Of a stretch of 64,000 bases of DNA, positions 39,384 through 57,969 are shown piece after piece. How positions within the stretch are numbered: the stretch's first letter is position 1; the number at the start of each line of letters is the position of its first letter. The stretch is from Ostreococcus lucimarinus (taxonomy: Eukaryota), in NCBI GenBank assembly GCA_000092065.1, contig CP000588.1. One strand, 5' to 3'. The notes below the pieces were generated by a model. That model was not told the origin of the DNA and ran no database searches. It was given only the letters and a program-made list of their open reading frames with translations. The translations under genes and the position numbers were made by a program.

Positions 39384-39393
39384 ATGCGGTCGA

Positions 39394-39424
<31 letters not shown>

Positions 39425-39824: not shown

Positions 39825-42505
39825 CGGAATTGGAGCGACGGTTGGCGAGTCGACGGGTGTTCGTGCCGTGGGGGTCGAAGGCGAGCGACGTCGCGAGGGC
39901 GTTGCCGAAGCCGACGCAGTGCGCGGCGACGGAGGAGGCGATCGTATTGCCGGAAGGGATCGAGGATTTAGTGCTTTGGGAGCCGGATCGCGAGGGTGAT
40001 GGTGGAGAGACGAGCGCGACGGCCGGTGGGGCGAGCGCGAAACCGATCGTGGTCGATCGCATGCTCACGAGATGGTTGCGACCGCACCAACGCGAGGGGG
40101 TCAAGTTTATGTTTGAGTGCGTCATGGGTTTGCGCGATTTCGAAGGCCAAGGGTGCATTCTCGCGGATGACATGGGTTTAGGTAAGACATTACAAGGGAT
40201 CACGCTGCTCTGGACGCTCTTGAAGCAAGGTATCGATGGTACGCCCGCGGTGAAGCGCGCGTTAATCGTCTGTCCGACGTCGCTGGTGTCCAACTGGGAC
40301 GACGAGTGCAACAAGTGGTTGAATGGGCGCGTGAAAACGTTGCCCATTTGCGACTCCACTCGCGCTGAAGTCGTGAGCTCGGTGAAGCAATTTCTCGCCC
40401 CGCGACATCTCGCGCAAGTCATGATTGTGAGCTACGAAACGTTTAGGATCCACTCGGACCGTTTCAACTTTGACGGCGCGGTGGATTTGATCATGTGCGA
40501 CGAAGCGCATCGCCTGAAAAACGGCGAGACGCTGACGAACAAGGCGTTGTGTTCGGTACCGTGCTTGCGAAGAGTGATGCTGAGCGGGACACCCATGCAA
40601 AATCACTTGGATGAGTTTTACTCGATGGTTGGCTTTTGCAATCCCGGCTTGCTCGGCACCCCTCCCGAGTTCGCGAAGAAGTTTGAGCGACCCATCTTGG
40701 CTGGACGCGAACCAGACGCGACGGAAAAGGAACTCGAACGCGCGCAAGAGGCGAATAGCGAGCTCTCTGATCTCGTCAACAAGTTTATCTTGCGTCGCAC
40801 GAACACGATTTTGAGTAAGCACCTTCCGCCGAAAGTCGTGGAAGTCGTGTGCTGTAAGCTTTCGCCGCTTCAGCAGGCGCTGTACGAGCACTTTCTCACG
40901 TCAAAGGCGGCGAATCAGGCGTTGACTGGAAAGGCGACGGCCGTGTTACCCGCAATCACGGCGTTAAAGAAGTTGTGCAATCACCCGAAATTGATTTACG
41001 ACATGATTAATGGCGCAAAGAACACTGGTCAAGCGGCGAGCGGATTCAGCACGTGCGCGGAATTTTTTACTCCCGGAATGTACGACGGCGGCGGGGGGCG
41101 GAGTGGTCGCGGTGGCGGTGGCATGATGCACGGCTGGGAAGAGCACAGTGGAAAGTTTGCTGTACTCGCGCGTCTTCTCGCTAATTTGCGCGCCGAGACT
41201 AAGGACCGTATCGTCATCATTTCCAATTACACGCAAACTCTCGACTTGGTGGGCAACATGTGCCGCGAGCGAAACTACCCGTTCGTGCGCCTCGACGGCT
41301 CGACGTCTATCGGAAAGCGTCAAAAGCTCGTCAAACAGTTCAATGATCCCACGAGTAATTCTTTTGTGTTTCTCTTGTCTTCCAAGGCTGGCGGATGCGG
41401 TATCAACCTCATCGGAGGTAATCGTCTCGTGTTATTCGATCCCGACTGGAATCCCGCCAACGACAAGCAAGCCGCCGCGCGGTGCTGGCGCGACGGTCAA
41501 AAGAAGAAGTGCTACTTGTATCGCTTTTTGGCCGCGGGCACGATCGAGGAGAAAGTTTTCCAGCGTCAACTGTCCAAGGAAAGCTTGCAAAACGTCGTCA
41601 ACGGTTCGGGGGAACTCGAACAATCCGTCATGTCCAAGGACGAGTTGCGAAAGTTGTTTTCGTTGGACTGCACGACGTACTCGGATACGCACGACACGTG
41701 CGGTTGCAAGCGATGCCCCGCGCGGAACGGTGACGACCTCGGGTGCGACCCGGACGCGGAATACAAGGAATGGGAGGAACAAATCGACGACGCAGACGAA
41801 CAAAAGCTCGACGAGTGGGCGCACCATCACCGCATGGACAAAGTTCCCGACGATATGATGAAAAAGTCGGCGGGCGAGGACGTATCCTTCGTGTTTTCGC
41901 TCAAAGTTGAGGGCGCGGCTATTGATGAATCGAAGAAAGCTCCAGCACCCGAAAAGAAGTCGGAGGAAGCGTCTGAGAAGAAGCCGACGCCGACGATGCC
42001 GTCGCACTCGACGCGCCCACCGACCAGATTCGTGCCGCCGGCGCGACGTCCGCTCGCGCCGCGAGTTGCGCCGCAGGCGACGGCGATGCCGGCGTATCAA
42101 CGACCGAGTACTCTGATCGCTGCGAAGCCATCGGAAGGTCGCGTGCCGCCCATGCGCGCAGCTGTGAAACCTGCCGCGAAAGCGCCCAAGAAGAAGAAGA
42201 AACTTGAGAGCGAATCCGAAGACGAAGACACCGAGGAAGAATCCGAACAGGAAGAATCTGAAGCCGAGGAAGAATCTGAAGAAGATGAGCCAGTCGCTGA
42301 TACGGAAGGGGACGACGATGATGAAGTACCAGATTCTGAAGATGAAGACGTCGCCGACACCTCTGCGCCGCGTCAAAAGCGATCATCACCGGACGCGGAT
42401 GAAAGCGCGACGCGATACAAGGCGGCGCGCCTGTCGTCCTTAACGTCAGATCGAGGCTTTGCGGTGCCGCCGCGCTCGCCCAGCGACGAATCCGACGGAT
42501 ACTAG
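39825..42505 (+). CDS. RAD54: RAD54 exon 2 (SNF2 ATPase/helicase core and acidic/Lys-rich C-terminus)
   Basis: LRPHQREGVKFMFECV, ILADDMGLGKTLQ, DEAHRLKN, LSGTPMQN (N lobe); LDGSTSIGKRQKLVKQFN, LLSSKAGGCGINLIGGNRLVLFDPDWNPANDKQAAARCWRDGQKK (C lobe); DTHDTCGCKRCP zinc-knuckle-like tail. Stop at 42505. Confidence 0.85.
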
Positions 42506-42630
42506 AAAGAAAAAGTTGTTGTTTCATTTTATTAAAAAGCTTCGATTGGCATCGCGTAATAGTGCGCTGCGTCCGCCTCCGCCCGCGCCTCTCTCCCCGG
42601 CCAACTGTCGATTCCCATCAAAACGGTTTA

Positions 42631-43193
42631 TTAGTACCCCATCTGCGCCTCGGCGGCTTCCGCGAGGATCGGGAATCGGATGTATTGACCGCTCATGCAA
42701 CCCACCGCGGCGAACGCGAAGGCGGCGAGAGTGACGACAAAGATGGCGTTGTGCATGATCATGGTCACGATTCCCGGTAAACCGATGCCCAAAATACCCG
42801 GTCCGAACAACGCCTCGAGGAGAGACGGGAAAATCAACGCGATGTCGAGCAAAATCGCTTGCATACCGTTGAAGCGGCAAAAGCGCGACAAGTTTTGATT
42901 CTTCGCGATCCCAAGATATATGGCGAAAAACATTATGAGATTCCCCATCGGCAACATCGCCACCCCGCGCAAAATCGGCATCAACGGCTTCAACAGCACC
43001 ACCGCGGCTGGAAACTGGCCGAAGAAGAAGCGCCCGTACCGCAACGCGCTCAACAACGGCAACAAGTACGGCACCAACGCCACGACGCGATCGGGCACGG
43101 GAACGATGTTAAATCCACCCCCGGCGTACCCTCGCGCGACGACCGTCGTCGTCCCTCGCGCGCGCGTCGCGCTTCTCTCCCTCGCCGCGACCG

Positions 43194-43225
<32 letters not shown>

Positions 43226-43353
43226 CCCGCGCGCGCCGTTCGCCGTCCCGTCGTCCGCGTCTCCCCCATCCCGACCGCGCGCGCCGCCACCCTTCGCCCC
43301 ATCGCCCGCGTCTGTCGCCTCGCCCGCGCCGTCGTCGTTCGCACCGCCGCCCG

Positions 43354-43384
<31 letters not shown>

Positions 43385-43389
43385 ATCAT
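42631..43389 (-). CDS. Tic20-family chloroplast inner-envelope translocon protein
   Basis: ATG ATG verified at 43389-43384. Thr/Ala/Arg-rich presequence with a (T)9 run, then four predicted TM helices and the Tic20-like block ..ALVPYLLPLLSALRYG..AIYLGIAKNQNLSRFCRFNGMQAILLDIALIFPSLLE. Confidence 0.6.
43196..43226 (-). repeat. (acg)n trinucleotide repeat encoding poly-Thr in the Tic20 presequence
   Basis: Plus strand reads gtcgtcgtcgtcgtcgtcgtcgtcgtcgtc at this position. Confidence 0.7.
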
Positions 43390-43709
43390 CCCTCGATTCG
43401 CGCTTTACCACGATTCACCGTCCACCGCCTCGCTTTCGCGCCGCGCCGCTCGCGTCGCGTCCGCGCGACGGGTTTTCCGCGCGTTTCGACGCGACGCGAC
43501 GTCGCGTCGCTCGATGCCGCGCGCCGTCGCCGTCGTCGTCGTCGTCGATTCGATGCGATCCCGCGCGGGTCGTTACGCGAACCCATAACATTAAAATCCC
43601 GTACGTAGACGCGCACTCGACCGATCGATCGACCGACCGCGTGACGTCGACGTCGACGAATGCGAGTGCATGATTGCGCGCGTCGCGACACACCGCGACG
43701 CCGACGACC

Positions 43710-44078
43710 ATGCGCGCCGTGAACCGAATCGCCGACGGACGCGCGATCGTCGCGCGCGCGCGACGCGTCGAACGACGACGCGCGACGCGCTCGACGCGGG
43801 CGGAAAAAGAGGGCGAACAGATGAATCAAGAGATGGCCGGCGGCGAGATCGGGCTCGGCGGACTGGAGGACATGATGGACAAGGCGGACGGTGGGGCGAC
43901 GCCGGATTTCGTGAAATCGCTCGGCGTGAAGGAGTTGGACGATGTGTTCGCGATCCTCGGGTCGCAGACGAAGGGCGCGGAGCTCGGGCAGTTGGTGCTG
44001 AGCGAAAAGTTTGGGGAGACGCTGTACCGCGAGAGCGGGTTCACGAGCTTGGCGGAGACGATCAACGGTCGATGCGCG
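43710..44078 (+). CDS. LHC-like three-helix protein (ELIP/LIL type) exon 1
   Basis: The track ORF 43674 starts at TTG; first ATG at 43710 (MRAVNRIADGRAIVARARRV.. presequence). Exon 1 ends ..ESGFTSLAETINGRCA, i.e. inside the first LHC motif E-x-x-N-G-R. Confidence 0.7.
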
Positions 44079-44311
44079 GTGCGTTGGCGAGTCGCGCGAG
44101 TCGCGTCGTTCGATGGGGATTATGCGTCGAGAATCGCGATGGGGGGACGCGGACGCGCGCGCGCGGTGGCGAGCGCGAGACGGGGCGCGAGACGGGACGC
44201 GAGACGCGCGCTCGAGACGCCAGCGCTGGAAATATCTCGTCGCGCGCGCGCGAACGCGCGCGACGCGGCTGACGCGAAGACTGACTGACGAATATGTTTA
44301 CGCCAACGCAG
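44079..44311 (+). other. spliceosomal intron (233 bp, GTGCGT...CAG) of the LHC-like gene
   Basis: Donor GCG|gtgcgt at 44079 and acceptor cgcag| at 44311 join frame 0 to frame 2. This creates the contiguous LHC helix-1 motif AETINGRCAMVGFVLAV (compare ETINGRLAMIGF of ELIPs); phase 0. Confidence 0.75.
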
Positions 44312-44602
44312 ATGGTTGGTTTCGTTCTCGCCGTCATGAACACCTTCAACGGTGACTTGCTCACGATGATGGCCAAGGTTCCCCTCGCCGTCGTCTTCGT
44401 CATCGCCACCATCAGCGCGGCGAGCGTCGTGCAAAAGGTGAACCCGACGGGCTACATCCCGGACAACGTCAACGGTGCCGCCATGAACGCGTACTCCGGC
44501 GCTAAGTTGGACGAAGTGTTCACTTACAAGGCGGAACTGGTGAACGGTCGCATGGCTATGCTCGCCATGCTCTTCTTCGTCGCCACCGCGTCGATCTTTT
44601 AA
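44312..44602 (+). CDS. LHC-like three-helix protein (ELIP/LIL type) exon 2
   Basis: Encodes the rest of helix 1, a central hydrophobic helix (KVPLAVVFVIATISAASVV) and the helix-3 LHC motif ELVNGRMAMLAMLFFV; stop at 44602. Confidence 0.75.
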   Translation: MVGFVLAVMNTFNGDLLTMMAKVPLAVVFVIATISAASVVQKVNPTGYIPDNVNGAAMNAYSGAKLDEVFTYKAELVNGRMAMLAMLFFVATASIF

Positions 44603-44836
44603 GCGCTCGATCGACGTCGATCGAAGCGGCGCGATTCGTCGCGACGTCATTTTTTGTTCAATTCGCGCGATCGCCGCGCGCTCGGTGTGATGAAGGACGA
44701 GAGTTGATTCAATATCACTTCCCGTCGTTACCGCACTCGCGCGTCGTCGCATGTTCGTTGTAACATCCGCTAAGCAACACTACTATTCGCATCCGTCTCG
44801 ACTCCGTCGTCGCGGCGCGTCCGCACTTCTCGCCGC

Positions 44837-45634
44837 ATGCGTCTCACCAAAGCTCAAAAAGAACGCGATGCGCTCCTACTCGCGCGATTTCGTGTCTACC
44901 GCGAGTGGTGTCTACCGCGCGAGGTGCGGCAATGCATAGAGATTCGAACTCGCACGGCCAATCAACAACTCTACGAGGACTGTAAACATCTCGCGCAGAC
45001 GTCGAGAGGGCGAAAGCGAGACCTCGGCCGCGCGCTCGAACGCGTCGGGTGCGCCGAACGACACGCGCACGCGCTCTGTCAATCGTTCATAAGAGGGTCC
45101 GCGCACGTATCGTGGACGGCACGCGGAGTTGCGCATGAAATGGCGCGGCAAAAGTACTTGCTCGAGCACTCCGGTGCGTTCAAACGCGAGATCGGCGCGA
45201 TGGCGGCGAAGATCAACAAACGCCTTCACGAGTTGGTGATGGCGCGCGGACGTGTCGAAAGCGTCAGAGATGACTCAATAGTGTATGAACGAATTCGTTC
45301 GGAGGCGACGCGGGATGTGACTGGAGCGGAGACCTTCGCGGCGGCGGCGGCGAGCGTCGCGAGACACTGGCGAGATTTCCCTGTGGGGGGTTGGCCGTGG
45401 CCTACGGCGCCGCCGCCCGCTCCACTCACGAAAGGAGAAAAAGCGGTGTTATTCTTGAAGAAACTGAAATGTCACGGAGCACGCGAGCACGACAAGTTCG
45501 TGAACATCATGAACATGCACAAATATAATTTTCTGAGCGTGCGAGACGTCGATCGAGAAGTCGCCGCGTTGCTGCCGCGTCATCCGCTGCTGCGCGAGTT
45601 CAGAGAGACGTTCTTGCGCCCCGCGAGCGCGTGA
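44837..45634 (+). CDS. hypothetical protein, paralog A of a tandem pair (family unknown)
   Basis: ATG verified at 44837; MRLTKAQKERDALLLARFRVYREW..IEIRTRTANQQL..KHLAQTSRGRKRDLGRALERVGCAERH..SFIRGS..WTARGVAHEMARQKYLLEHSGAFKREIG.. The conserved N-terminal ~110 aa are shared with paralog B. Confidence 0.5.
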   Translation: MRLTKAQKERDALLLARFRVYREWCLPREVRQCIEIRTRTANQQLYEDCKHLAQTSRGRKRDLGRALERVGCAERHAHALCQSFIRGSAHVSWTARGVAHEMARQKYLLEHSGAFKREIGAMAAKINKRLHELVMARGRVESVRDDSIVYERIRSEATRDVTGAETFAAAAASVARHWRDFPVGGWPWPTAPPPAPLTKGEKAVLFLKKLKCHGAREHDKFVNIMNMHKYNFLSVRDVDREVAALLPRHPLLREFRETFLRPASA

Positions 45635-45694
45635 GCGGTCGCATTGATGCGTGCTAACGCGACCATTATTCGACGATACTGTATGACATGATTG

Positions 45695-45699
45695 TGTAA
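45695..45699 (+). promoter_or_regulatory. TGTAA poly(A)-signal-like motif downstream of paralog A
   Basis: gattgTGTAAtatgactg read directly, about 60 nt after stop 45634. Confidence 0.3.
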
Positions 45700-45715
45700 T
45701 ATGACTGTATGACTT

Positions 45716-45780
45716 CCAGACGAGTGACGACGTCGCGACGCCGCCAGACGAGTGACGACGTCGCGACGTCGCGACGCCGC
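45716..45780. repeat. 28-bp tandem duplication (ccagacgagtgacgacgtcgcgacgccg x2 with an 8-bp insertion) between the two paralogs
   Basis: Read directly: ccagacgagtgacgacgtcgcgacgccg ccagacgagtgacgacgtcgcgacg tcgcgacg ccgcg. Confidence 0.75.
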
Positions 45781-45815
45781 GCGCGCGCTCCTTCACAACG
45801 CGCCTCTTCGACGCA

Positions 45816-46397
45816 ATGGTTCGACTGACCAAGATCGAGAAGAACCGAAGAAAGCTCATCAGCTGTAGATTGCTCGTCTATAAGCTCCACGCGCTACCTG
45901 TCGAATCGTGGCGAATCATCGAGCGTCATACGCGCGCGTTAAATCTGGAACTCTGGCACAAGACGAAACACTTGCAGCAAACTGCGAAGCAGCGCAGGGC
46001 TGATGTGAAGGCGGCTCTCCAGACTCATGGGTGCGAAGATCGCATCGACGAATACCCAATAAGCAAGCGATTTATCGCCGGGAAACTCAAAAGTTGGACG
46101 GCGATACGCGTCGCGGAGCACGTTGCAAAACTCAGATATCTCCTAGACGGACACTCTCGGGAGTTTGAACGAGAAATGGCTGAGCTCGAAGGCGCAATCG
46201 ATGATGAGGTTGAAGAAATCGCCGAGATCGCGGGCATGGAACGAGGCAGAGGGCCGATTTATTTCGGTGGTATTCGTCGTGAGGCGCTGCGCAACGTGCA
46301 CGGTGCTGAAAGCTACGACGAAGCCCGGATATGCATGGCCGAGAGCTTCACCGGTGACATGCCGCGGGTCTGGCCTTGGCTCGAGCGCCGGGTCTGA
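45816..46397 (+). CDS. hypothetical protein, paralog B of the tandem pair (family unknown)
   Basis: ATG verified at 45816; MVRLTKIEKNRRKLISCRLLVYKL..IERHTRALNLEL..KHLQQTAKQRRADVKAALQTHGCEDR..RFIAGK..WTAIRVAEHVAKLRYLLDGHSREFEREMA.. aligns position-for-position with paralog A (roughly 30% identity) and ends with a shared WPW motif. Confidence 0.5.
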   Translation: MVRLTKIEKNRRKLISCRLLVYKLHALPVESWRIIERHTRALNLELWHKTKHLQQTAKQRRADVKAALQTHGCEDRIDEYPISKRFIAGKLKSWTAIRVAEHVAKLRYLLDGHSREFEREMAELEGAIDDEVEEIAEIAGMERGRGPIYFGGIRREALRNVHGAESYDEARICMAESFTGDMPRVWPWLERRV

Positions 46398-46460
46398 GCG
46401 ACGATGTCAATAGTTATCGATGTGACTTACAATGCTCGATTGCATACAAAACGTACTCGT

Positions 46461-49400
46461 TCACACGACGAGATTTGCACGCTCGGCGCGCCCCTCTGGC
46501 GTGCGGCGCTCGCGACGCTCACGAGCGAAGTCGAGAATCGAGCGCGATTTAAACACCGCTAAGACGATGACGCACACGAAAGCGAATGGAGCCGCGAACG
46601 CGACGAACGAACCAAATGGACGCTCAAAATCGCGCACATCGCCGAGGGAAGCGTGTTTACCTTGTACGTCGTCGACGGCGTCACCACGCGCTTTTTCGTG
46701 GTGCTCATCTTTGACTCCGACATCTTTCACGCCGAGCTCTTTCACGCCGAGCGCGACGGTAGCCGCCGCTGCTCTTCGCACGAGCTCGTGAGCGGTGATT
46801 ACGTTTTTCTCTGCGGCGCCGAGTCCTGCATCATTCGCTTCAATCAGCCTATCTCGCAGATGCCCTTTACTTAAACCAATAGGAGCAACGATCTGGTCTT
46901 CTGGCACCGAACCAAGAATCGCAGAGCACTGTCCTGCACACGTTCCGAAGACGAAATTTTGCGACGCGAGATTCGGGGTGTGGTACTGCACTCGATTTCT
47001 CCACTTTCCCGCCTGCACGTCCGTACAGTCGGACGTGAACGCCGGAGACGCAGTCTCTCCGTAGTAGGCTTGCCACATTTCGTGACCGAAAATGTGTCCC
47101 GAATCGTAGACGTGATTGCCTTCGGCGTCCGCCAGCGCGAACCCGTAAGCGACGGAACCAGACCAACCACTTAGTGTGGCGCCGTAAGTGCATGTATGAT
47201 AGTAATCATTTCCATCGCGCCCGGTTATCGGAGTCATGGCGATACCTCTGCTGTACGGCCACCTCATGCGGTTACCAAGAGGTGGTCTCTGTGATACGAG
47301 CTTGACTTGCGTCAAATCATCGACTGCCAGCGGGACGTGAAGATAACGCTCGTCTACGCCTTCCTCGGCTTCTCGCGTAGACGTGTTGTTCAGTGTGTAC
47401 TCTATTACGCTTTGTGGAATGCACTCCGTACTGACGTAGTAGCACGGCGGAGGAACGACCATGCATGGATCAGCAGCCGGACAACTCGGATGTTTGTGAT
47501 CTGAAGCTGAGAGCGCCTCAAGAATGCCTTCCAACTCGCTCGTATCGTTGTCTTGAGGGCAAACCAAGTCATCGGAATCGCAGTTCCAGAGCGCGCCGAC
47601 AGGACCTTGAACGTCGAGTTGCGTTCGAGACCCGGCGCACGTAGCCTTGCAGTTTCTGCCGTATCTGAAATGCCATTGAGCTCCATAGGTGCTGAGACTA
47701 TTGCGATGATACTTCGACAGATACGCCGGCATCGTAATGTCGTCAGCCACATCATCAACAATACTCGCCAATGGAACTGGGAGAATGGGAATGTGTGTGT
47801 GATTGTTACGGTGCCCATACACCGGAACGACGTATGGGTTAGCGACAAACACGACGAAAGGTTCCATTTCGAACGATTCGTGCTCGTCGTATTCCGGAAC
47901 ACTCGCGAGCGGCACGAATGGCGCAAAGTGGGGCGGTGGTGGCGGGCTCGGAGGCGGGCTCGGAGGCGGGCTCGGAGGCGGGCTCGGAGGCGGGCTCGGA
48001 GGCGGGCTCGGAGGCGGGCTCGGAGGCGGGCTCGGAGGCGGGCTCGGAGGCGGGCTCGGAGGCGGGCTCGGAGGCGGGCTCGGAGGCGGGCTCGGCGGGC
48101 TCGGAGGAGGGCTCGGAGGAGGGCTCGGAGGAGGGCTCGGAGGAGGGCTCGGAGGAGGGCTCGGAGGAGGGCTCGGAGGCGGGCTCGGAGGCGGGCTCGG
48201 AGGCGGGCTCGGAGGCGGACTCGGTGTTGGCGTCGGCGTCGGCGTCGGCGTCGGTGCGGCAGCCAGGGCGGCGGCGGCATTAGGTGCCAGCACTGCGTTG
48301 TGATATTCGAGATACCTCTCTTCTGCTTCCAAGTTAAAAGTCGCCAAGTCGTCTTGCGCGAGCTGCGCATCCAAATCAGTCAAGAATGAATAACTATTCG
48401 TCGTTTTCCAGGCCTCGATTGTGTCTACAACGTGTTGTTGGTACACTTCATCGGCAGATATATTGACATTTTGGTTGAACGACCAAACATCTGCAGCCGC
48501 AGCTTCTGAATCTAGTGAAAGATCACAGAGGTACGTGTTTATTGTGCACTGCGAAGACTGCCATTCGTCCACCTTCGTCGTAATGTAGCGTTCTTTCACT
48601 GCAGCGTTCGTACTGGTCACGTCGTCGTTGGATTGCAATCTTGCTTCTGGAGTGGTCACGCTGTACGAGTGCGTAGACGCCCACGTCGAAACACGAGAAC
48701 TCTCCGTATTCCAGTAATGGGCGTCGTAGGCCGACTCGAGCGCTGCGTTGTATCCCTCCAGATCGTTGACCACGTCACGGATCGGCCAACCCGATGGCGC
48801 ATACCCAGTCGCGGCGTTTGAAAGCAAGAAATCGTCCAAGGCGGCTTGTTCGTCGATTTGGAGCTCGAGGTGCTTGTCACCGGAAAGTTGTTCAAATCGA
48901 TCCATCCATTTCTTCGTCGAAGCGCTGATCGACAAACCTTTGCGGTAAAACTTGCCTAATTTCGACACATCCCCCGCGCGATAGTAAAGACGGAAAAACT
49001 CGAATAGATAGTCTTTAGTATCACTGGCGATATCGGCATCGCTGATCGCATGTCTCGTCAGCCAAGCTTGCAAATCCCGTTGCACGCGCGCGTTTATCAT
49101 CAAAAACGCCGCGTAACGCATGTCCATCACGAACGTAGTCGTATCGCTCGGATCACCGTATCCGGAAGCCGGTCTCAGCACTGATTCAGTCATCCAAGGA
49201 CACGTGTAAGTGAGTCGAAGACTACCGAAGTAATCTGGGCTGTACGTTTTCCACACCTCGTTCCGATTGCCGTCGTCATCCGCGCCCGTGATGACGCACG
49301 CGTCATAATCGGCGTCTCCAGCGTAATGCTCGCTCACATACGCCGTGAGCGCACTCTGAAACTTGGGCAAGTTAAAAGGTTGCATTATTTGCGTGTCGTA

Positions 49401-49790
49401 GTTCGCGTATCGCGGGTTTTCGCGCATCATGATCCCGGGACATCTATCGAAGCGGTCCGTCACGCCGCGATGGCTGTACCTCATGCATCCCGGGTGCGGC
49501 ACTCTGGGGTCATCCACGTGCGTGTACGCCCCGAGCGTCCCCACCGCGGCGATCGACACCGTCACGCACGCGAGCGCGACGGCGAGCGCGCGCCCGATCG
49601 TCACCACCGCGCGCACATTTCGTCGAGTGTGCGGTCGGGTGTTCCGCGTCGTCGTCATCGTTCTCGGCCGTGGACGCACATTCGATAGGGTGTTACGCGT
49701 CGTCGTCATCGTTCTCGCCTTTCCCGTCTCGCCGGCGACGATCACGCCGGTGCGCGGGAGAGAAGCATCGCGACGCTGTTTCGATGGCAT
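46461..49790 (-). CDS. extensin-like hydroxyproline-rich-glycoprotein-type membrane protein with (SPPP)n module
   Basis: ATG verified at 49790; 1109 aa. N-terminal signal-anchor ([26 protein letters not shown]), a large Cys-containing globular region, then (TP)5 + (SPPP)~25 and a second Cys-rich globular region. C-terminal hydrophobic segment ([22 protein letters not shown]) and basic tail. GC is lower than in flanking genes. Confidence 0.6.
47941..48251 (-). repeat. near-perfect 12-bp coding microsatellite (ggaggcgggctc)n ~23 copies plus (ggcgtc)5, encoding (SPPP)n(TP)n
   Basis: Read directly on plus strand 47941-48221: ggcgggctcgga repeated, with five central ggagggctcgga variants, followed by ggcgtcggcgtcggcgtcggcgtc. 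Confidence 0.9.
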
Positions 49791-50047
49791 CCTTCGCGTC
49801 GACGCGCGCGGTGATGTCGGCGTGCGCAGAGGCGCGACGCGAAGTGTCCATCGCTGGTCGGATCTTGTTAAATATGTAACATCGTTTGGGTCCGCTTTAG
49901 TAGTGTTTGGATCCGTTATAGTGCTATCTTGGGTCCGCCCTCAGTATTTTTTCCGTCCAGAGCTAAGTAAGCCCTGGACCGCGTCTCTTGAAATTTCGTC
50001 TAAGAAACTTTCGATGTGACTACAAATGTGTGACTGTGTGTGTACGA

Positions 50048-50686
50048 CTAATCCAATCTCAGCGGCATCTCTTCCTTGCGCACGCCGTCGGCGTTCATGA
50101 TCCACAGCTCCACGCGGTCGCCCGTGTAAATGTCGCGCTCCGCCGCCGTCGCGAAGCAATCCTTGATCAGCTCGATCGCCGCCGCCTCGCTCAACGGCGT
50201 CGCGCTCGACACCGCGGGCAGCACCAAAGGCGAAACCGTCTTGAGCTGATTATCCAACACCGGCATGATCAACGCCTGTCCCGAACCTTGACAGGAATAA
50301 TTCGTCCGTTCGTACGAGCCCACGGCGTCGTACGTAAACACCGCCCCTTTCCCTTCCGCGTCCAACCCCGCGACGATGTTAAACGCGTAATACGGAAAAA
50401 ACCTTCGGTAGTACAGCGTATTACTCAGCATTTGAGCGAACGACACGCATCCGATAGGCTTCTTATTTTGAAACTCGTACTGCTTGCATCGCGCCTTGAG
50501 CGTCTTCTTCAGCGTCTGCGCGTCCGCCATGAACCCCGCGCTCGCCATGAGCGTCTTCGGGCTCATCTGATCCACCTTTTCGTAATTTCTCGTCAAGATG
50601 CTGTATCCCGTGCTCATCCGCGTGTCGCTCGCGCATATCACATAATTTTCGCCCGCCACCGCGAGCACCGTCCCGCCGTTGTTGTC
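50048..50686 (-). CDS. proteasome subunit beta type-6-like (PBF1/PSMB1 homolog) exon 2
   Basis: DNNGGTVLAVAGENYVICASDTRMSTGYSILTRNYEKV..SNTLYYRRFFPYYAFNIVAGLDAEGKGAVFTYDAVGSYER..TAAERDIYTGDRVELWIM closely matches plant PBF1. An in-frame TAG immediately 5-prime of the DNNGG codons shows the ORF begins at an acceptor. Confidence 0.85.
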   Translation of the reverse strand, partial: DNNGGTVLAVAGENYVICASDTRMSTGYSILTRNYEKVDQMSPKTLMASAGFMADAQTLKKTLKARCKQYEFQNKKPIGCVSFAQMLSNTLYYRRFFPYYAFNIVAGLDAEGKGAVFTYDAVGSYERTNYSCQGSGQALIMPVLDNQLKTVSPLVLPAVSSATPLSEAAAIELIKDCFATAAERDIYTGDRVELWIMNADGVRKEEMPLRLD

Positions 50687-50926
50687 CTATCGAGCGCGTC
50701 GTCGAGCGCGTCGTCAGTCATCGCGATCCTTCCTTCGTCGCCGTCGATGCGATCGGACGATCGCATCGACGTCATCGCGTCTTCGTTCATTCATCGCCTC
50801 GCGCGCGCGCGTCCCGTCGCGACGTAAACCGCATCGACGCGTCATCAACCGCGATTGCGTCCGCGCGCGTCGTCGCGTCTCACGCCTCGCGCGCGCGCGC
50901 GCGCGCGTCGCTCGCGTCGCGCACGC
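50687..50926 (-). other. spliceosomal intron (240 bp, GTGCGT...TAG) of the proteasome beta gene
   Basis: On the minus strand the exon-1 codon TAC is followed by gtgcgt (plus 50926-50921). The acceptor ..ctcgatag| precedes GACAACAAC at 50686; phase 0. Confidence 0.75.
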
Positions 50927-50971
50927 ACGTATGGCGACCAATTCGCGTGTTGTCTCGCGCCTTCGGGCGCC
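50927..50971 (-). CDS. proteasome beta subunit exon 1 (45-nt micro-exon MAPEGARQHANWSPY)
   Basis: Minus-strand ATG at 50971-50969; encodes MAPEGARQHANWSPY. The QHANWSPY block matches the N-terminus of Arabidopsis PBF1 (MTKQHANWSPYDNNGGT) and joins exon 2 to give ..NWSPYDNNGGT. Confidence 0.75.
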
Positions 50972-51093
50972 ATCGCGCTCGGATCGGCCGCGCGCGCGCG
51001 CGAAAGTGACGCGGGATCGACGCTCGGAGGGACTTTCAGCCGTTGACCTCAATTCGCGTCGCGCGATTCGCTCGCCCGTCGCGCGCGCGCGCG

Positions 51094-53793
51094 ATGGAGC
51101 TGTTTCGGAGCGAGCGAATGTCGCTCGCGCGCGTCATCGTGCCCGAGGAAGCCGCGCGGGACACGATCGAACGCGTGGGCGAGCTCGGGGTGATGCAGTT
51201 TCAAGATCTGAACTCGGACACGCCGGCGTTTAAGCGCGCGTACTCGACGCAGATACGACGCGCGGACGAACTGCTGCGACGGTTGCGGTACTTTCGAGAC
51301 GAAGCGCGACGAGCGACGATCGCGGTGGCGCGATCGAGACGGAGAAACGCGACGGGACGCGGGAGCGGGGCGACGACGACGACGACGGACGAACTGGACC
51401 ACGTCACGGAGGAGCTCGAACGCGATCTCGCGCAAGCGCTGAAGAATTACGAGAGGCTGATGAGGACGCACAGCGAGTTGATGGAGCTGCAGTTGGTGCT
51501 GGAGAAGGCGGGGGGGATATTTGAGGAGAGTCGAGCGGACGGAGGAGGGCGCGGCGGCGGCGACGTGGATTTTCGCGGGACGCGGTCGTACGACGACGTC
51601 GAGGGGGGGGGCGAAAGCTTGCTGCCTGTCGCGAGTGTCGGCATGGGCGCGGCGACGGAGCGGCGCGGTGAGATGGGATCGAGGTCGGGGTCGTATTTAG
51701 AGATGGCGGAATTGGACGCCGCGGGCTCGAGCGGGCGAAGCGGCGACGGCGCGTCCGCGTCGTCCAACAGCGCCGCGGGCGCGTCGGCGGTGCGACTCGG
51801 ATTCATCACTGGAGTTATCCTCACGAATAAGGTGATCTCGTTCGAGCGGATTTTGTTTCGCGCGACGCGAGGGAACATGTTTTTGAAGCAGTCGCAAATC
51901 CTGGGCACCGTCGTCGACCCCACGACGGGCGAAAAGTGCGAAAAGACCGTGTGCGTGGTGTTTTTCGCGGGTGAGCGAGCGAGAGAGAAAATCATCAAAA
52001 TCTGTGAGGCGTTCAACGTGAATCGGTATCCGTTCCCTGAGGATTACACACGTCAGCGACAAATGTACGCCGAGTGCACGGCGCGTCTCGTCGAGTTGCA
52101 GTCAACGCTCGACGCTTCCACGCAGCATCGCGACGATGTTTTGCGTAAAGTGGGCGACAGTCTGGAAGATTGGATTCAAATAGTTCTGCGCGAGAAGGCT
52201 ATTTATCACACGATGAGCATGTGCTCGGTCGACGTCACACGAAAGGTGCTCGTGGCTCAAGCTTGGATTCCTGACTACGCGCTGTCCTCCGTGCAGACCG
52301 CCTTGACGGATGCGAATCATTCCTCGCTCGCTTCCGTTGGGACGATTTTTCAGCAAATAGAAACCAAGGAATCCCCGCCGACGCACTTTCAGACGAACAA
52401 AGTCACCTCAGTCTTCCAAGGCATCGTCGACGCGTACGGCGTCGCGAGCTATCGCGAGGTGAATCCCACGGTGTTCACCATCGTGACTTTCCCATTCCTA
52501 TTCGCCGTCATGTTCGGTGATTTTGGCCATGGATTTCTCATGCTCTTCGCCGCGCTATATTTGGTGATGAACGAAAAGAAGCTCGCGGCGTCGGGACTGA
52601 ACGAAATCATCCAGATGGCGTTCGACGGTCGATACGCCATCCTACTCATGTCCATTTTTAGTATTTACACTGGTTTACTCTACAACGAATGTTTCTCTGT
52701 ACCAATGAATTGGTTCGGTGCGAGTAAGTATGTGTGCGATCCAAATGACCCGACGGCGTCTACGACGTGCGATTCGGCGTATAAGACCGGCCTGGTGAAT
52801 AACGGCGACGGCGCGTACGCCTTTGGCGTCGACCCCATCTGGCACGGTTCGCGTTCGGAATTGCCGTTTTTGAACTCGCTGAAGATGAAAATGTCTATTT
52901 TGATGGGTGTGACGCAGATGATGCTCGGAATCTTCATGTCATTCCTAAATCAGGTGTACACAAACGACAAGCTCTCGATGTATTGCGAGTTTTTCCCGCA
53001 AGTCATCTTCCTCGGCGCGCTCTTCGGATACCTGTCGTTGCTGATCCTCATCAAGTGGTGCACGCCTGGTTCGACTGCCGATTTGTATCACGTTATGATA
53101 TACATGTTCCTTTCCCCGGGCAACGTCGATTGCGCCGGCGAAGGCGAAAACGGCGGTCCCGGTTGCCCCGAAAACGTCTTGTTCCCAGGGCAAGCGGGCT
53201 TTCAAAATTTTTTGTTGTTTCTCGCCTTTGTGGCGGTGCCGGTGATGCTGTTTCCGAAACCGTACATTTTGAAGAAGCGACACGAAGCGTCCCGAGGCGG
53301 GGTTCGGCGAGGCGGCGTGCGATACGCGCGGCTTGATGCAGAAGATGACGACGACGAGGCGTTTTTGCAAGCGTCAGATGCGGAGAACAGCTCACCGTCG
53401 GCTGAAGAGGAAGAAGAATTTGATTTCGGCGAAATCATGGTGCATCAAGGGATCCATACCATTGAATTCGTTCTCGGCGCTGTGTCAAATACCGCGTCTT
53501 ATCTTCGTCTTTGGGCGCTGTCACTAGCGCATGCGCAACTCTCAGCCGTGTTTTGGGATCGCGTCTTCATGGGCGCCGTGGCGAGCGGAAACGTCGTCGC
53601 CATCGTGATGGGTTTCGCCGTGTGGGCGTTCGCCACGATTGGGGTGCTCATGCTCATGGAATCTCTGTCCGCGTTTTTACACGCGTTGCGCTTGCACTGG
53701 GTCGAGTTCAACAACAAGTTCTTCAAAGGAGCCGGCTATGCCTTCGTCCCGTTCACCTTCGTCGGTCTCAGCGACAAGTCCGACGACGCGTGA
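51094..53793 (+). CDS. V-type H+-ATPase V0 subunit a (VHA-a, 100-116 kDa subunit)
   Basis: ATG verified at 51094 (MELFRSERMSLARVIVPEEAARDTIERVGELGVMQFQDLN..). The family-typical C-terminal membrane region (..LSLAHAQLS..) is present. A Gly/Ser-rich insertion includes a G9 homopolymer at 51601-51609. Stop at 53793. Confidence 0.9.
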   Translation: MELFRSERMSLARVIVPEEAARDTIERVGELGVMQFQDLNSDTPAFKRAYSTQIRRADELLRRLRYFRDEARRATIAVARSRRRNATGRGSGATTTTTDELDHVTEELERDLAQALKNYERLMRTHSELMELQLVLEKAGGIFEESRADGGGRGGGDVDFRGTRSYDDVEGGGESLLPVASVGMGAATERRGEMGSRSGSYLEMAELDAAGSSGRSGDGASASSNSAAGASAVRLGFITGVILTNKVISFERILFRATRGNMFLKQSQILGTVVDPTTGEKCEKTVCVVFFAGERAREKIIKICEAFNVNRYPFPEDYTRQRQMYAECTARLVELQSTLDASTQHRDDVLRKVGDSLEDWIQIVLREKAIYHTMSMCSVDVTRKVLVAQAWIPDYALSSVQTALTDANHSSLASVGTIFQQIETKESPPTHFQTNKVTSVFQGIVDAYGVASYREVNPTVFTIVTFPFLFAVMFGDFGHGFLMLFAALYLVMNEKKLAASGLNEIIQMAFDGRYAILLMSIFSIYTGLLYNECFSVPMNWFGASKYVCDPNDPTASTTCDSAYKTGLVNNGDGAYAFGVDPIWHGSRSELPFLNSLKMKMSILMGVTQMMLGIFMSFLNQVYTNDKLSMYCEFFPQVIFLGALFGYLSLLILIKWCTPGSTADLYHVMIYMFLSPGNVDCAGEGENGGPGCPENVLFPGQAGFQNFLLFLAFVAVPVMLFPKPYILKKRHEASRGGVRRGGVRYARLDAEDDDDEAFLQASDAENSSPSAEEEEEFDFGEIMVHQGIHTIEFVLGAVSNTASYLRLWALSLAHAQLSAVFWDRVFMGAVASGNVVAIVMGFAVWAFATIGVLMLMESLSAFLHALRLHWVEFNNKFFKGAGYAFVPFTFVGLSDKSDDA

Positions 53794-53836
53794 ACAGAAC
53801 GGCAAATTAGCATCATGATATGATACGAATTGATTG

Positions 53837-53841
53837 TGTAA
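53837..53841 (+). promoter_or_regulatory. TGTAA poly(A)-signal-like motif 44 nt after the V-ATPase subunit a stop
   Basis: attgattgTGTAAtgataaacg read directly; AT-rich 3-prime UTR. Confidence 0.4.
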
Positions 53842-53884
53842 TGATAAACGTTACAACATTTAGCAAAATGATAGTGTATACAGT

Positions 53885-56080
53885 TCACGACGACGAGCGC
53901 GTTCGTCTGAGCCACGGTCTTGAGTCGCCCGTTTGCGTTTCGACGGTGTGCGTTCGGCGCGCGTCAAAAAGCGAGTCGCGATTTGTGAGGTCTATGAAGA
54001 CCTCCACAGCCTGAAGACCAATGAATGCAAGAGCGCCTCGTCTTGATGTTTCGCTTTGGTCGAGCGCTGATAATCCGACCGCGATGCCGACGACGGCGCA
54101 CAGGGAACTCCACGCGTGCTGTACACCGCGAATTTTTCGGCGGCGGCGATTGTCCGCGCAAAGCGCCGCGAGTAAGTTTTTGAAAGTATCCCAGTATAGA
54201 TATTGACACCTTGACACGCGTATTTGCCGCGCACCTTGTGATACGCGCGCGACGAAATGTGCCAGTCGCACGTGATCGTTTTCGCATTGGCGATTGAGAC
54301 GCGAGGCGAGGCGATTGAAATCAACGCTCCATGCGATGAAGACGGTAAAGGCGAAAGCCACCGCCGCGTCCGCCGCGCTCGTCATCGTGAAGCCCGCGGC
54401 AAGTGCGACGTAGATTACTCGCGCGAACGCGTGTGCGGTCCTCGAATACTGCAGCGAATGCGCGACAATGCGTTGCATCGCAATGGATGCCACAAACGTT
54501 CCGATGGCAGCGTATAAGAGCGCGTTGGAAGGATTCCACATTCGTCGCTTGCCGTCGAGCCATCTTTCAAAAGCGTGCAGTGATATAGCTGGAGTGATAC
54601 CGACGCATGCAAAGATACTGACGATCAACGAAACTGATTGAAAGTTCCAACCTTTCATGGACGCGGCAACGTTCTTCGTTGGGGCAGCGAGAAATTCTCG
54701 CGGCGACGGATGAATAACCCTTGACTTGTCAATCGGCGCAGTCTGTCGCCGCGACGACGACGACGACAGCGCTCGATGAATTGTGTGCGCGTCGCAACCC
54801 TCCAGCATAGAGCTCCATTTACCGATGAACACGACGCTGTTGCCTTCGGTGATGACGATACGATGGCACAAAGGAAGTACGGCGATATCAGTCGTGGTGA
54901 ACACGCAGGACCGACGCCGGTTTGTTAGGCGATTCATTGCTCGCAATCGCGCGCGTTCATCGTATATTTCATAGAATGGGTCTTGTGCCAGCATGATACG
55001 AGCGTGCGCGCACCTTGCACGCTCCAAACCGATTTCACACGCACCACCATCGCTCGTGCTACACGCGATGACGTCGTCCGCGGTTTCCTTTGGTCGCTTG
55101 CGAAGCGCACATTCCAGGTAGCGATCTGATGAGCATAACGCCGCTTCTAACGACTCTATCAGGCGCGATCGTTTCAGAGCATCTACGCGTGATGAAGCAG
55201 ATCCCAACACCAGCGCGTTGACACGCCTATCGACGGGTTCGGGCACGCGCCATTCCTTGCTCGGCGAAAGCAGTACGTCAACTTCGTCCGCATGTTCGAC
55301 GCCTCGAATAAGTCGATTAAATAAGTCGTATCGTCCATCGCCGACGATGGCGACGAGCTCTCCGCCGTTTTCAACGAGCGCCGATGTTGACACAGAGGGC
55401 CCTCTGTGAGAGCTCCGTTCGTTGTCGGTCACGAGAGCTACAAATTCGACGCGTCGTGCCGAGTCAATTTTCGCTCGCCGAGCGCTCACGAGCGCTCGAA
55501 CGCATGCTCGAGTCAAAATCAGCGCTGAAAATGCATCTGCTTCGTCGATGTATCGTACATACGCGGAATGTGCGAAGCAAGCGGTAATCAACACCGCGTA
55601 AGCGACCGCATCCACGTAGTTCTGTCTCGATCCAGAAACTGCCAAAGCAGCCTCGCTTTGCGCAAACAGTCGCCATTCATGCGCAATTCGTTCCGCGCAC
55701 AGTGAACGGTTTGATGCCAGCAATAAAGTATCATAAACTGCTCGCTCGTATTTCTCCGTCACGCGCAAACGCGTTAATCGCGAAACTGTGTCGACGACGC
55801 CGAGCGCGGCGAAAGATGGCAAAATCCAACCGAGCTCGCCGCGAGAGACCAATCGGCGAACGCCGAACGCACAAAACACCGTCGAGGTGAATATCAAGAT
55901 ATTGAGAAAACGACACGCAAAAATCAATCCATCGACGTGCGAGAATCTCGATGCGTTTTCGTGTTTCGTATCCCCAATGTGAAAGAGTTCCTCGCGGCTC
56001 CAACGCGCGAGAAGACCAAACCATCGCGACGTCGGTGCGGGCGCAAACGCGCTCGCGGCGTGACGCGCGCGTGAAAGCAT
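53885..56080 (-). CDS. multi-pass membrane protein with central soluble domain carrying degenerate ABC-NBD-like motifs; hypothetical
   Basis: Continuous 786-codon ORF to ATG 56245; that start overlaps the CCD stop by 35 bp, so internal ATG 56080-56078 (MLSRARH..) is preferred. Hydrophobic helices occur at both ends (LIFACRFLNILIFTSTVFCAF; SLIVSIFACVGITPAISL; VIYVALAAGFTMTSA; AWSSLCAVVGIAVGLSAL). The middle segment has Walker-A-like VAIVGDGRYDLFNRL and H-loop/D-loop-like TTTDIAVLPLCHRIVITEGNSVVFIG. Lower GC than the surroundings. Confidence 0.4.
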   Translation of the reverse strand: MLSRARHAASAFAPAPTSRWFGLLARWSREELFHIGDTKHENASRFSHVDGLIFACRFLNILIFTSTVFCAFGVRRLVSRGELGWILPSFAALGVVDTVSRLTRLRVTEKYERAVYDTLLLASNRSLCAERIAHEWRLFAQSEAALAVSGSRQNYVDAVAYAVLITACFAHSAYVRYIDEADAFSALILTRACVRALVSARRAKIDSARRVEFVALVTDNERSSHRGPSVSTSALVENGGELVAIVGDGRYDLFNRLIRGVEHADEVDVLLSPSKEWRVPEPVDRRVNALVLGSASSRVDALKRSRLIESLEAALCSSDRYLECALRKRPKETADDVIACSTSDGGACEIGLERARCAHARIMLAQDPFYEIYDERARLRAMNRLTNRRRSCVFTTTDIAVLPLCHRIVITEGNSVVFIGKWSSMLEGCDAHTIHRALSSSSSRRQTAPIDKSRVIHPSPREFLAAPTKNVAASMKGWNFQSVSLIVSIFACVGITPAISLHAFERWLDGKRRMWNPSNALLYAAIGTFVASIAMQRIVAHSLQYSRTAHAFARVIYVALAAGFTMTSAADAAVAFAFTVFIAWSVDFNRLASRLNRQCENDHVRLAHFVARVSQGARQIRVSRCQYLYWDTFKNLLAALCADNRRRRKIRGVQHAWSSLCAVVGIAVGLSALDQSETSRRGALAFIGLQAVEVFIDLTNRDSLFDARRTHTVETQTGDSRPWLRRTRSSS

Positions 56081-56210
56081 GTGTCTTATGCGGGTTTTTG
56101 GAACTACACGCGAAATCGAAGTCGTAGAATGTTGCGAGTTGCGTTCTGCAGCTGCAGCTGCCTCGGGACGCGCGAAACGACAACGAATACAACATGTTAC
56201 AAGATAGATA

Positions 56211-57920: not shown

Positions 57921-57969
57921 CGCGAACGCGAGGACGAATTCGACGCTCGACGCGTCACTCACTGACGCG
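57921..57969. promoter_or_regulatory. 49-bp divergent (head-to-head) intergenic region between CCD and CWC15 start codons
   Basis: CCD ATG at 57920 (minus) and CWC15 ATG at 57970 (plus), both verified in the sequence. A shared promoter region is an inference. Confidence 0.3.

Follow-up and report, generated by a model that had tools for sequence, protein, structure and literature searches.

A length-variable SPn spacer between two conserved domains in a chimeric extensin of Ostreococcus lucimarinus

Described Systems with a Similar Layout

Volvocine pherophorins have two globular domains and a hydroxyproline-rich rod of variable length. The protein described here is encoded in a 64,000-nucleotide stretch of Ostreococcus lucimarinus DNA (contig CP000588.1; hereafter, the window) and resembles the pherophorins in its dumbbell layout and in having a polyproline spacer that differs in length from one family member to another. 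Unlike the pherophorins, it is membrane-anchored with a cytoplasmic tail, gives no match to the Pfam pherophorin domain, and its family is found only on marine picoalgal contigs. The Chlamydomonas proteins SAG1 and SAD1 and the wall protein GP1 have polyproline-II shafts with globular ends; SAG1 and SAD1 are sexual agglutinins, and Ferris et al. (2001) is the work cited in this connection in PMC3797821. The likeness to these proteins is an SPn-based polyproline-II shaft between globular parts, while the rod of the window protein is much shorter and a transmembrane anchor is present.

The fungal adhesins FLO and ALS contain intragenic tandem repeats whose copy number varies between strains by slippage or recombination. 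They share with the window protein a coding tandem array of varying copy number in a surface protein, but their sequences are unrelated, their anchoring is GPI or wall-linked, and an effect of length in the window protein would be an analogy. Plant PERKs and class I formins are likewise single-pass membrane proteins whose ectodomain includes an extensin-like SPn stretch. In those proteins the stretch adjoins the membrane, whereas in the window protein it lies between two ectodomains, no kinase or FH2 domain is present (no Pfam match), and the tail has only ~28 residues.

The closest described class is that of the chimeric extensins (Showalter 2010; Liu et al. 2016), which have at least two SP3–5 motifs plus domains that are not hydroxyproline-rich, and the window protein falls within it. 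The class is defined by motif and not by homology, and Liu et al. (2016) gave no function, family, or comparison for the non-repeat domains of the O. lucimarinus member, gene model 24979.

The Gene and Its Published Model

The gene is a single uninterrupted reading frame of 1109 amino acids when the window is translated, and its neighbours in the window are ordinary housekeeping genes.

46461..49790, minus strand: whole open reading frame, 1109 codons from the first ATG (open reading frame list and translation)

From Met45 (window position 49658) onwards, the protein is identical to model 24979, which has been classified as "Chimeric EXT" with 22 SP3 and 1 SP5 motifs in 1065 residues (Liu et al. 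2016, PMC4769139). The S1 Table entry of that study reads "22/0/1/0" and gives a YXY count of 0. By this match, the gene is one already known since 2016 as a chimeric extensin in the O. lucimarinus catalogue, so the initial annotation, which read it as an extensin-like (SPPP)n membrane glycoprotein, was right and not new. What is new, judging from the comparisons below, is that the SPn run changes fast and varies in length, and that it separates two conserved domains that occur in close relatives only. Exact look-ups with Met1, Met28, or Met45 as the first residue gave no match in a collection of 15 billion proteins, and a literature search for OSTLU_24979 gave none either.

The possibilities that the frame is an artefact of assembly, or that it does not code or is decaying and is left open by high GC, are refuted by the evidence below and retain practically no probability. 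High-GC DNA yields many long spurious reading frames, several long frames overlap the 46461..49790 region in the window's list, and contigs built from short metagenome reads are broken at the array. On the other hand, a frame with the same architecture occurs on many independent contigs at 54–99% identity and under purifying selection. The possible assembly error in the microsatellite that had been raised at the outset is also unlikely, as the published model has the same 22 SP3 and 1 SP5 units, and an independent contig, L001, whose name suggests a long-read assembly, has 23 units in the same place.

The Repeat Array

Tandem Repeats Finder places a period-12 repeat at 47941..48224 (23.9 copies, 96% matches, score 498) and a period-6 repeat at 48221..48254 (5.7 copies). 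No other array in the window comes near the period-12 repeat in strength. On the coding strand, the region reads as (PT)5 and then 24 Ser-Pro(n) units.

48222..48254, minus strand: (PT)5P module, four exact CCGACG copies and one CCAACA variant (Tandem Repeats Finder and coding-strand reading)
47931..48221, minus strand: SPn array of 24 units (22 SPPP, 1 SPP, 1 SPPPPP), a 12-bp coding microsatellite and presumed hydroxyproline-glycosylated polyproline-II rod (repeat finding and orthologue comparison)

At the DNA level, 15 units are AGCCCGCCTCCG (the CCG-CCT type) and six are AGCCCTCCTCCG (the CCT-CCT type); the others are an AGT variant, a 9-bp SPP, and the terminal SPPPPP. The five central variants of the initial annotation are in fact six, and its (ggcgtc)5 consists of four exact copies and one variant. 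The 22 SPPP, 1 SPP, and 1 SPPPPP units place the run within the extensin module of Showalter and Liu (repeated SP3–5, at least two SPPP). The spacer has no tyrosine, and the YXY motif that lies among the SPn units of classical cross-linking extensins is absent.

Segments Flanking the Array

Hydropathy analysis gives hydrophobic stretches at residues 58–90 and 1057–1089. Upstream of the first lies an Arg/Thr-rich region with a short duplication, each copy of which contains an ATG; the L001 orthologue has a single copy.

49614..49715, minus strand: imperfect tandem duplication with a 51-bp unit, Arg/Thr-rich N-terminal part (residues 26–42 and 43–59, RTMTTTRNT...; translation and L001 comparison)
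49527..49610, minus strand: N-terminal hydrophobic segment (about residues 61–88), ending ...VGTLGA before the conserved YTHVDD (hydropathy and orthologue signal peptides)

The N-terminal hydrophobic segment is probably a signal sequence, either cleaved or anchoring, since the orthologues P0061 and P0062 and the homologues P0040 and P0041 have short classical signal peptides ending exactly where homology starts. The alternative is a doubly anchored loop protein, in which both hydrophobic segments sit in the membrane, both termini are cytosolic, and the rod lies along the membrane and spaces the two domains. The hydrophobic core is long (~21–28 residues) and follows an Arg-rich stretch, and SignalP returned "No" for model 24979 (Liu et al. 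2016, PMC4769139), so the segment may be a second anchor. However, the signal peptides of the distant homologues, of the cleavable type with 15–19 hydrophobic residues and small residues at −1 and −3, end at the same conserved boundary, and we regard the double anchor as rather unlikely. Thus, of the hydrophobic anchors proposed for both ends, the C-terminal one stands, and the N-terminal one is better read as a signal sequence.

49526 down to 48258 (48258..49526), minus strand: N-domain, residues 89–511, six Cys, no known family (database scans and alignments)
46791..47930, minus strand: C-domain, residues 621–1000, 12 largely conserved Cys, no known family (alignments, PDB and Pfam scans)
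46617..46790, minus strand: charged juxtamembrane stretch, residues 1001–1058, poorly conserved (alignment)
46548..46616, minus strand: C-terminal transmembrane helix, about residues 1059–1081 (hydropathy maximum 2.8; in all full-length homologues)
46464..46547, minus strand: short basic cytoplasmic tail, residues 1082–1109, ending in ERANLV (46467..46484)

The ~420-residue N-domain has six Cys and the C-domain 12, and the label Cys-rich that was first given to the two regions overstates this. The second half of the N-domain shows weak internal repeats of ~50 residues (self-comparison E 0.0016, probability 16%), which are expanded in the homologue P0043, and this expansion is the one clear sign in their favour. 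In the C-domain, an NN[TS] sequon is kept in most members, and the motifs include EMWQ..GE. The juxtamembrane stretch holds a 15-bp coding tandem repeat (46708..46752, GVKE/GVKD). As a separate observation, P0043 has a 33-bit match to Pfam DUF7307.

Of 27 distinct family tails, 24 contain [DE]xxxL[LIVM]. The acidic dileucine consensus, through which cytosolic tails bind AP adaptor complexes, is [DE]xxxL[LI], and the last residue in the window protein is V, not L or I; by this resemblance, the motif is a putative sorting signal. Classical cross-linking extensins are secreted by way of a cleavable signal peptide and lack a membrane anchor, and here the C-terminal transmembrane helix and tail are family-wide.

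A Picoalgal Family

An exhaustive HMMER search of 1.84 billion representative proteins recovered 24 relatives of the flanking domains, all on marine picoalgal metagenome contigs. The library has no taxon labels, and within that limit none of the 24 was recognised as coming from a Chlamydomonas or Volvox proteome. A word-indexed homology search returned a single N-domain relative; one cause of this low yield is that the gene caller skipped the N-domain reading frame in L001 and called an opposite-strand frame instead.

Alignments and HMMER matches define a two-domain family consisting of the window protein, P0039, P0060–62, P0100–103, P0040/41, and P0043. Its members share the N-domain (HPGC...) followed by the C-domain, the transmembrane helix, and the [DE]xxxL[LIVM] tail. 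The C-domain signature motifs are C.ATC.GS, CD.DD..CP, PPPC.YVS.EC.P, NHVYD.GH, EMWQ..GE, and WRNR. An assignment of the distant homologues to Micromonas was rejected, as its sole basis was a contig GC of 65–68%.

A Pfam-A hmmscan of the whole protein (E up to 1) found no families, with none for the orthologues either, and the globular domains, which the initial annotation proposed to search against pherophorins among other families, show no relation to pherophorin. An NCBIfam scan of the whole protein gave no match, the PDB sequence search matched within the Pro-rich run only, and the C-domain profile found nothing in the PDB at E up to 10. AlphaFold2 models of the C-domain reached a pLDDT of 29.0 with nine aligned sequences and 36.6 with 22, and neither is usable. 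Foldseek with the second model gave no PDB match at E ≤ 0.001 (none < 0.1; TM ≤ 0.15), a result treated as meaningless. These searches assign neither a fold nor an activity.

Spacer Variation and Domain Conservation

Across the Ostreococcus-like orthologues, the spacer occupies one fixed position between the two domains. Its unit count ranges from 1 to 24, although the assembly of short metagenome reads may have collapsed some of the short arrays, and its units are of the SP3, SP4, or PSPPQ type. Even orthologues that cluster at ≥90% identity differ in the spacer, and this range agrees with the length polymorphism that had been expected. P0100 and P0103 have only 1–2 units, so a long rod is not essential. 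The more distant P0040 and P0041 (32–35% identity, contigs of 65–68% GC) have no SPn array; they align from N-domain into C-domain as a single stretch, with an aromatic/Pro-rich segment at the spacer site.

The syntenic L001 orthologue is ~90% identical overall and has a similar array composed of different synonymous variants: 13 CCT-CCT and 8 CCG-CCG, versus 15 CCG-CCT and 6 CCT-CCT in the window. Because another variant dominates in L001, and the variants differ block-wise, the array has the signature of concerted evolution, as the initial annotation had proposed for this near-perfect repeat. The flanking domains have dN/dS values of 0.25–0.38 and ~90% amino-acid identity, versus 99–100% for the housekeeping neighbours, and their dN is ~10 times that of those neighbours. 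By these values, the domains are functional and under purifying selection. The two domains appear to be the old conserved part, and the SPn array a young lineage-specific insertion at a fixed point.

These comparisons bear on a structural role, in which the protein would be a secreted, cross-linked extensin-type matrix or wall protein, for example of a cyst or zygote wall in a cryptic sexual or resting stage. GC3 is linked to expression in Ostreococcus, and the low GC3 of the gene fits one that vegetative cells do not express strongly. Also, the 22 SP3 units qualify as an extensin module by bioinformatic criteria, and the "wall-less" status of prasinophytes has been argued to merit a closer look (PMC3797821). 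On the other hand, the YXY cross-link motif count is 0, the transmembrane helix and cytoplasmic tail motif are conserved in homologues, and the SPn module is near-absent in some orthologues and missing in distant homologues; the function therefore cannot have this module at its core. We consider this role distinctly unlikely. Ostreococcus is naked, and together with the transmembrane anchor and the lack of YXY this makes the "cell-wall protein" of the initial annotation the wrong frame.

A recognition or adhesion receptor at the cell surface has also been considered, acting in gamete or cell-cell contact or in prasinovirus attachment, with rod length setting reach and variation driven by an arms race or mating-type divergence. 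The spacer is hypervariable in length and in type of unit, also between sequences of ≥90% identity, the domains diverge faster than their neighbours in dN, and the head, polyproline shaft, and base recall the Chlamydomonas sexual agglutinins. In yeast adhesins, variation in repeat number alters function. However, a dN/dS of 0.25–0.38 gives no overall positive selection, the gene sits among ordinary housekeeping genes, and repeat variation can equally be neutral. Such a receptor is therefore doubtful. A more specific form, in which a glycosylated rod whose length varies between co-occurring strains would tune the accessibility of the distal N-domain, is more speculative still. If true, rod length could change prasinovirus susceptibility or set gamete compatibility, a repeat-number "dial" comparable to that of the yeast adhesins.

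Proposed Explanation

The reading that we consider probable is that of a secretory-pathway membrane glycoprotein, in which a variable polyproline rod separates two old domains and the array slips and homogenises. Its secretory and extracellular character is supported by the largely conserved Cys and the sequon of the C-domain, by the signal peptides of P0061, P0062, P0040, and P0041, and by the family's transmembrane helix and tail motif. From the N-terminus, the protein would comprise a signal sequence, the ~420-residue N-domain partly made of helical repeats, the (TP)5(SPPP)24 spacer, a C-domain of ~380 residues with disulfide bonds and N-glycans, one transmembrane helix, and a tail of ~28 residues with an acidic-dileucine-like motif. 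If the analogy with the hydroxyproline-rich glycoproteins of plants and green algae holds, the spacer prolines would be hydroxylated and O-arabinosylated in the Golgi, and the protein is presumed to be a hydroxyproline-rich glycoprotein in the biochemical sense, a class marked by arabinosides on Hyp and Gal on Ser. The result would be a stiff polyproline-II rod of ~34 nm (~109 residues × ~0.31 nm) that separates the N-domain from the C-domain near the membrane. In every green alga analysed, prasinophytes included, homologues of RRA and XEG113, two arabinosyltransferases of family GT77, have been reported (PMC3797821), while no Hyp-Araf4 was found in O. tauri (PMC5371791), so the type of glycan is uncertain.

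The comparisons suggest that the array grows, shrinks, and homogenises through slippage or unequal exchange, and lineages would consequently differ in its length and unit type while the flanks stay under purifying selection. The gene would offer a concrete, genetically tractable case for the role of hydroxyproline-rich-glycoprotein modules in a wall-less alga, and the array a natural strain-level length marker for Ostreococcus populations.

Base Composition

The GC content of the gene without the repeat is 0.553, versus 0.612 for the window as a whole. Among 26 long reading frames, most with a GC3 of 0.66–0.84, only 53885..56245 (0.565) has a lower GC3 than the gene (0.617). The initial annotation described the gene and the 52–56 kb region as less GC-rich than the rest of the window. 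At third codon positions the gene and the frame 53885..56245 are the two lowest, but several other 1-kb stretches are as low in total GC, so the dip at the gene is real and not unique.

The extensin gene and its repeat array

The gene is an uninterrupted reading frame in which the arrays, on the coding strand, specify (PT)5 and then 24 Ser-Pro(n) units.

46461..49790 (-), chimeric extensin ORF, uninterrupted, 1109 codons
47941..48224, 12-bp array, period 12, 23.9 copies, 96% matches, score 498 (Tandem Repeats Finder)
48221..48254, 6-bp array, period 6 (Tandem Repeats Finder)
49614..49715 (-), imperfect 51-bp tandem duplication, 5' end of the ORF
46708..46752 (-), small coding tandem repeat, period 15, 3 copies, juxtamembrane

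The 12-bp array is the strongest tandem array that Tandem Repeats Finder detects in the 64-kb window. Fifteen of its units are AGCCCGCCTCCG and the central block consists of six copies of AGCCCTCCTCCG; one AGT variant, one 9-bp SPP unit and a terminal SPPPPP are also present. The initial annotation interpreted this extensin-like (SPPP)n gene correctly, but the central variants number six rather than five and GGCGTC is found in four exact copies rather than five.

This exact gene is already in the literature as a chimeric extensin. O. lucimarinus gene 24979 is listed as a 'Chimeric EXT' of 1065 aa with SP3/SP4/SP5/YXY counts of 22/0/1/0 (Liu et al. 2016, PLoS One 11:e0150177, PMC4769139, S1 Table). 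Its sequence in S1 Fig, which includes YTHVDDPRV, is, barring text-extraction drop-outs, the window protein starting at Met45 and running to its C-terminus (PMC4769139); the length (1109 - 44 = 1065 aa) agrees, as do the counts of SP3 and SP5. This match identifies the window as nuclear DNA of O. lucimarinus. New, and of moderate, specialist interest, are the very small family confined to picoalgae, the hypervariable and lineage-specific nature of the spacer, the probable presence of a signal peptide and the conserved tail motif.

Both copies of the 51-bp duplication (aa 26-42 and 43-59, RTMTTTRNT...) contain an ATG, and the published model begins at that of the second copy (49658). The orthologue on L001, a syntenic contig, has a single copy. 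The period-15 repeat encodes GVKE/GVKD-like units in a region poorly conserved among orthologues.

A reduced GC content had also been noted for the gene and for the 52-56 kb region. The gene without its repeat has a GC of 0.553 vs 0.612 for the whole window. With a GC3 of 0.617 it ranks second from the bottom among 26 long ORFs, after the ORF at 53885..56245. However, total GC is equally low in other 1-kb stretches of the window, so that the reduction is only partly distinctive.

Flanking domains and family

The spacer separates an N-domain (aa 89-511) from a C-domain (aa 621-1000). Two such globular regions were recognized from the outset, but their description as Cys-rich was overstated, as they hold 6 and 12 Cys, respectively. 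The protein has five N-X-S/T sequons. Pfam and NCBIfam scans returned no match, including none for the globular domains to the Pfam pherophorin/HRGP families that had been suggested. A PDB sequence search matched the proline run only, and a C-domain profile had no match in the PDB. Two AlphaFold2 runs (pLDDT 29.0 and 36.6) gave no usable fold and Foldseek no meaningful match.

An exhaustive HMMER search with the joined N- and C-domains, repeat removed, against 1.84 billion representative proteins recovered only 24 relatives. The members of the twelve 90% clusters examined all come from marine metagenome or environmental assemblies, none from NCBI or UniRef. The full-length orthologues P0039, P0060, P0061, P0062 and P0100-P0103 share the whole architecture at 50-58% identity and lie on contigs of 56-60% GC. 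Three further-removed lineages lie on contigs of 65-68% GC, which appear Micromonas-like by composition only: P0040 and P0041 (875 aa, 32-35% identity) and P0043 (1571 aa), whose expanded N-domain contains many helical repeats of ~45-50 aa. All three keep the N-domain, C-domain, transmembrane helix and short tail. In the C-domain alignment, 12 Cys are largely conserved together with several strongly conserved motifs, and an NN[TS] sequon is conserved in most members.

One N-domain repeat stretch of P0043 (locus L010, 4821..9536) matches Pfam DUF7307 (33 bits, E 6e-8), 'Pam3 gp33-like', a cyanophage protein family.

Variability of the Ser-Pro spacer

In every Ostreococcus-like orthologue, the spacer is flanked by ...YL.HHNAV., where the N-domain ends, and by PH[YF].PFV. 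The copy-number comparison proposed in the initial annotation shows that its length varies from 1 to 24 units.

Spacers of the window protein and its orthologues
Window: (TP)5(SPPP)24
L001: (TP)n(SPPP)23
P0039: (PSPPQ)7
P0060: 9 SPPPP
P0061, P0083: 7, 11 units
P0062, P0091, P0092: 5, 4, 8 units
P0063: 11 mixed units
P0070: 24 mixed units
P0100, P0103, P0102: 1, 2, 8 units

These counts are to be read with the caveat that such arrays interrupt short-read assemblies and may be collapsed in them; many contigs stop exactly at the repeat. Several of the compared orthologue pairs differ in spacer content within single clusters of at least 90% identity. The array is absent from the distant homologues P0040, P0041 and P0043, which have just an aromatic/Pro-rich segment. 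As judged from these sequences, the spacer is a young, hypervariable element at a fixed position. Since some orthologues have one or two units and the distant homologues none, the rod would modulate the function rather than constitute it.

In P0004, from a 2173-bp metagenome contig, an EGF-like fragment (CVCVELWSGRNCD) is directly joined to a Ser-Pro run and C-domain. Short reads were probably mis-joined here through Ser-Pro repeats that another gene shares, which calls for caution with metagenome contigs that span repeats.

Concerted evolution and selection

The name of the 111-kb contig L001 points to a long-read assembly. The extensin protein encoded there is ~90% identical to that of the window, whereas V-ATPase a, the proteasome subunit and SNF2 are 99.4-100% identical. 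The arrays are nearly equal in length (23 vs 24 units) but differ in their predominant blocks of synonymous variants: 13 CCT-CCT, 8 CCG-CCG and 1 CCG-CCT in L001, against 15 CCG-CCT and 6 CCT-CCT in the window. This is the signature of homogenization by slippage or unequal exchange, and bears out the concerted evolution proposed earlier.

The flanking domains have a dN/dS of 0.25-0.38 at a dS of 0.09-0.16, compared with 0.03 for SNF2 and 0.08 for RPE65. These ratios indicate a functional, fast-evolving protein without gene-wide positive selection.

Over 39000..59000, the two Ostreococcus genomes, that of the window and that of L001, diverge in a mosaic manner. On the RPE65-to-proteasome side, 7.6 kb are 97.6% identical in nucleotides, against 92.9-93.9% from the extensin gene onward, and the dS of V-ATPase a is 0.005 vs 0.04-0.24 for its neighbours. 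This pattern may stem from recombination or introgression between populations.

Topology, tail motif and proposed working

By hydropathy, aa 58-90 and 1057-1089 are hydrophobic segments. They correspond to the membrane anchors initially placed at both termini, but the N-terminal one is better read as a signal sequence. P0061 and P0062 begin with MRNESARAYALTALVVALTAVGALGA, followed by YTHVDD, and P0040 with MRAPFVPALAFALAGSASA, followed by RYVH; the N-terminal segment of the window protein stops at this common conserved boundary. It is therefore probably a signal peptide, in which case the mature protein would be type I. A double-anchor topology is the less likely alternative; it fits the published SignalP call of 'No' for model 24979 (PMC4769139, S1 Table). 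The same table lists no GPI anchor. The C-terminal tail ends in ERANLV, and the pattern [DE]xxxL[LIVM] is conserved in 24 of the 27 distinct tails of the family. The acidic-dileucine consensus is an adaptor-dependent sorting signal, and the resemblance suggests such sorting here.

The 4076-aa 'long chimeric extensin' 25682 of O. lucimarinus also has a C-terminal transmembrane helix, followed by ...SERTSLVATT..., and shares the ExxxL[LV] pattern (Liu et al. 2016 S1 Fig, PMC4769139).

We propose that the protein passes through the ER and Golgi, where the prolines of the spacer would be hydroxylated and O-arabinosylated. Prasinophytes are reported to have homologues of RRA and XEG113, enzymes of family GT77 (PMC3797821); Hyp-Araf4 has not been detected in O. 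tauri (PMC5371791). The resulting polyproline-II rod, roughly 34 nm long, would separate a distal N-domain from a membrane-proximal C-domain.

Comparison with known systems

The gene belongs to the chimeric extensins by their motif-based definition. Unlike classical cross-linking extensins, its product has no YXY motif and is membrane-anchored; the cell-wall framing of the initial annotation is not apt, and a wall-building role in vegetative cells is unlikely because Ostreococcus is regarded as naked (PMC3797821). The resemblance to pherophorins, whose Pfam domain is absent, and to Chlamydomonas agglutinins or GP1 is one of layout only, and the kinase and FH2 domains of PERKs and formins are lacking. 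No Chlamydomonas or Volvox relatives were recognized among the exhaustive-search matches, in a library without taxon labels.

Neighbouring genes

The surrounding genes are of ordinary nuclear type for a plastid-bearing eukaryote and encode a proteasome beta subunit, V-ATPase subunit a, an RPE65-type carotenoid oxygenase, TIC20, an SNF2 helicase, an FKBP-cyclophilin fusion and a Na/H exchanger.

44837..45634 (+) and 45816..46397 (+), adjacent paralogous ORFs, 265 and 193 aa
50048..50800 (-), proteasome beta-subunit ORF
53885..56245 (-), 786-aa ORF, GC3 0.565
58978..60045 (+), prolyl isomerase ORF

The ORF at 53885..56245 has no Pfam match and shares 91.6% identity with L001 along most of its length, vs 99-100% for housekeeping neighbours; it is another fast-evolving, lineage-restricted gene. 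The paralogous pair (~40% mutual identity), also without a Pfam match, is conserved in L001 at 85% and 94%. The proteasome ORF lacks an ATG and N-terminus and has stop codons just upstream; a short 5' intron is likely. The ORF at 58978..60045 combines FKBP-type and cyclophilin-type prolyl isomerase domains in a single frame.
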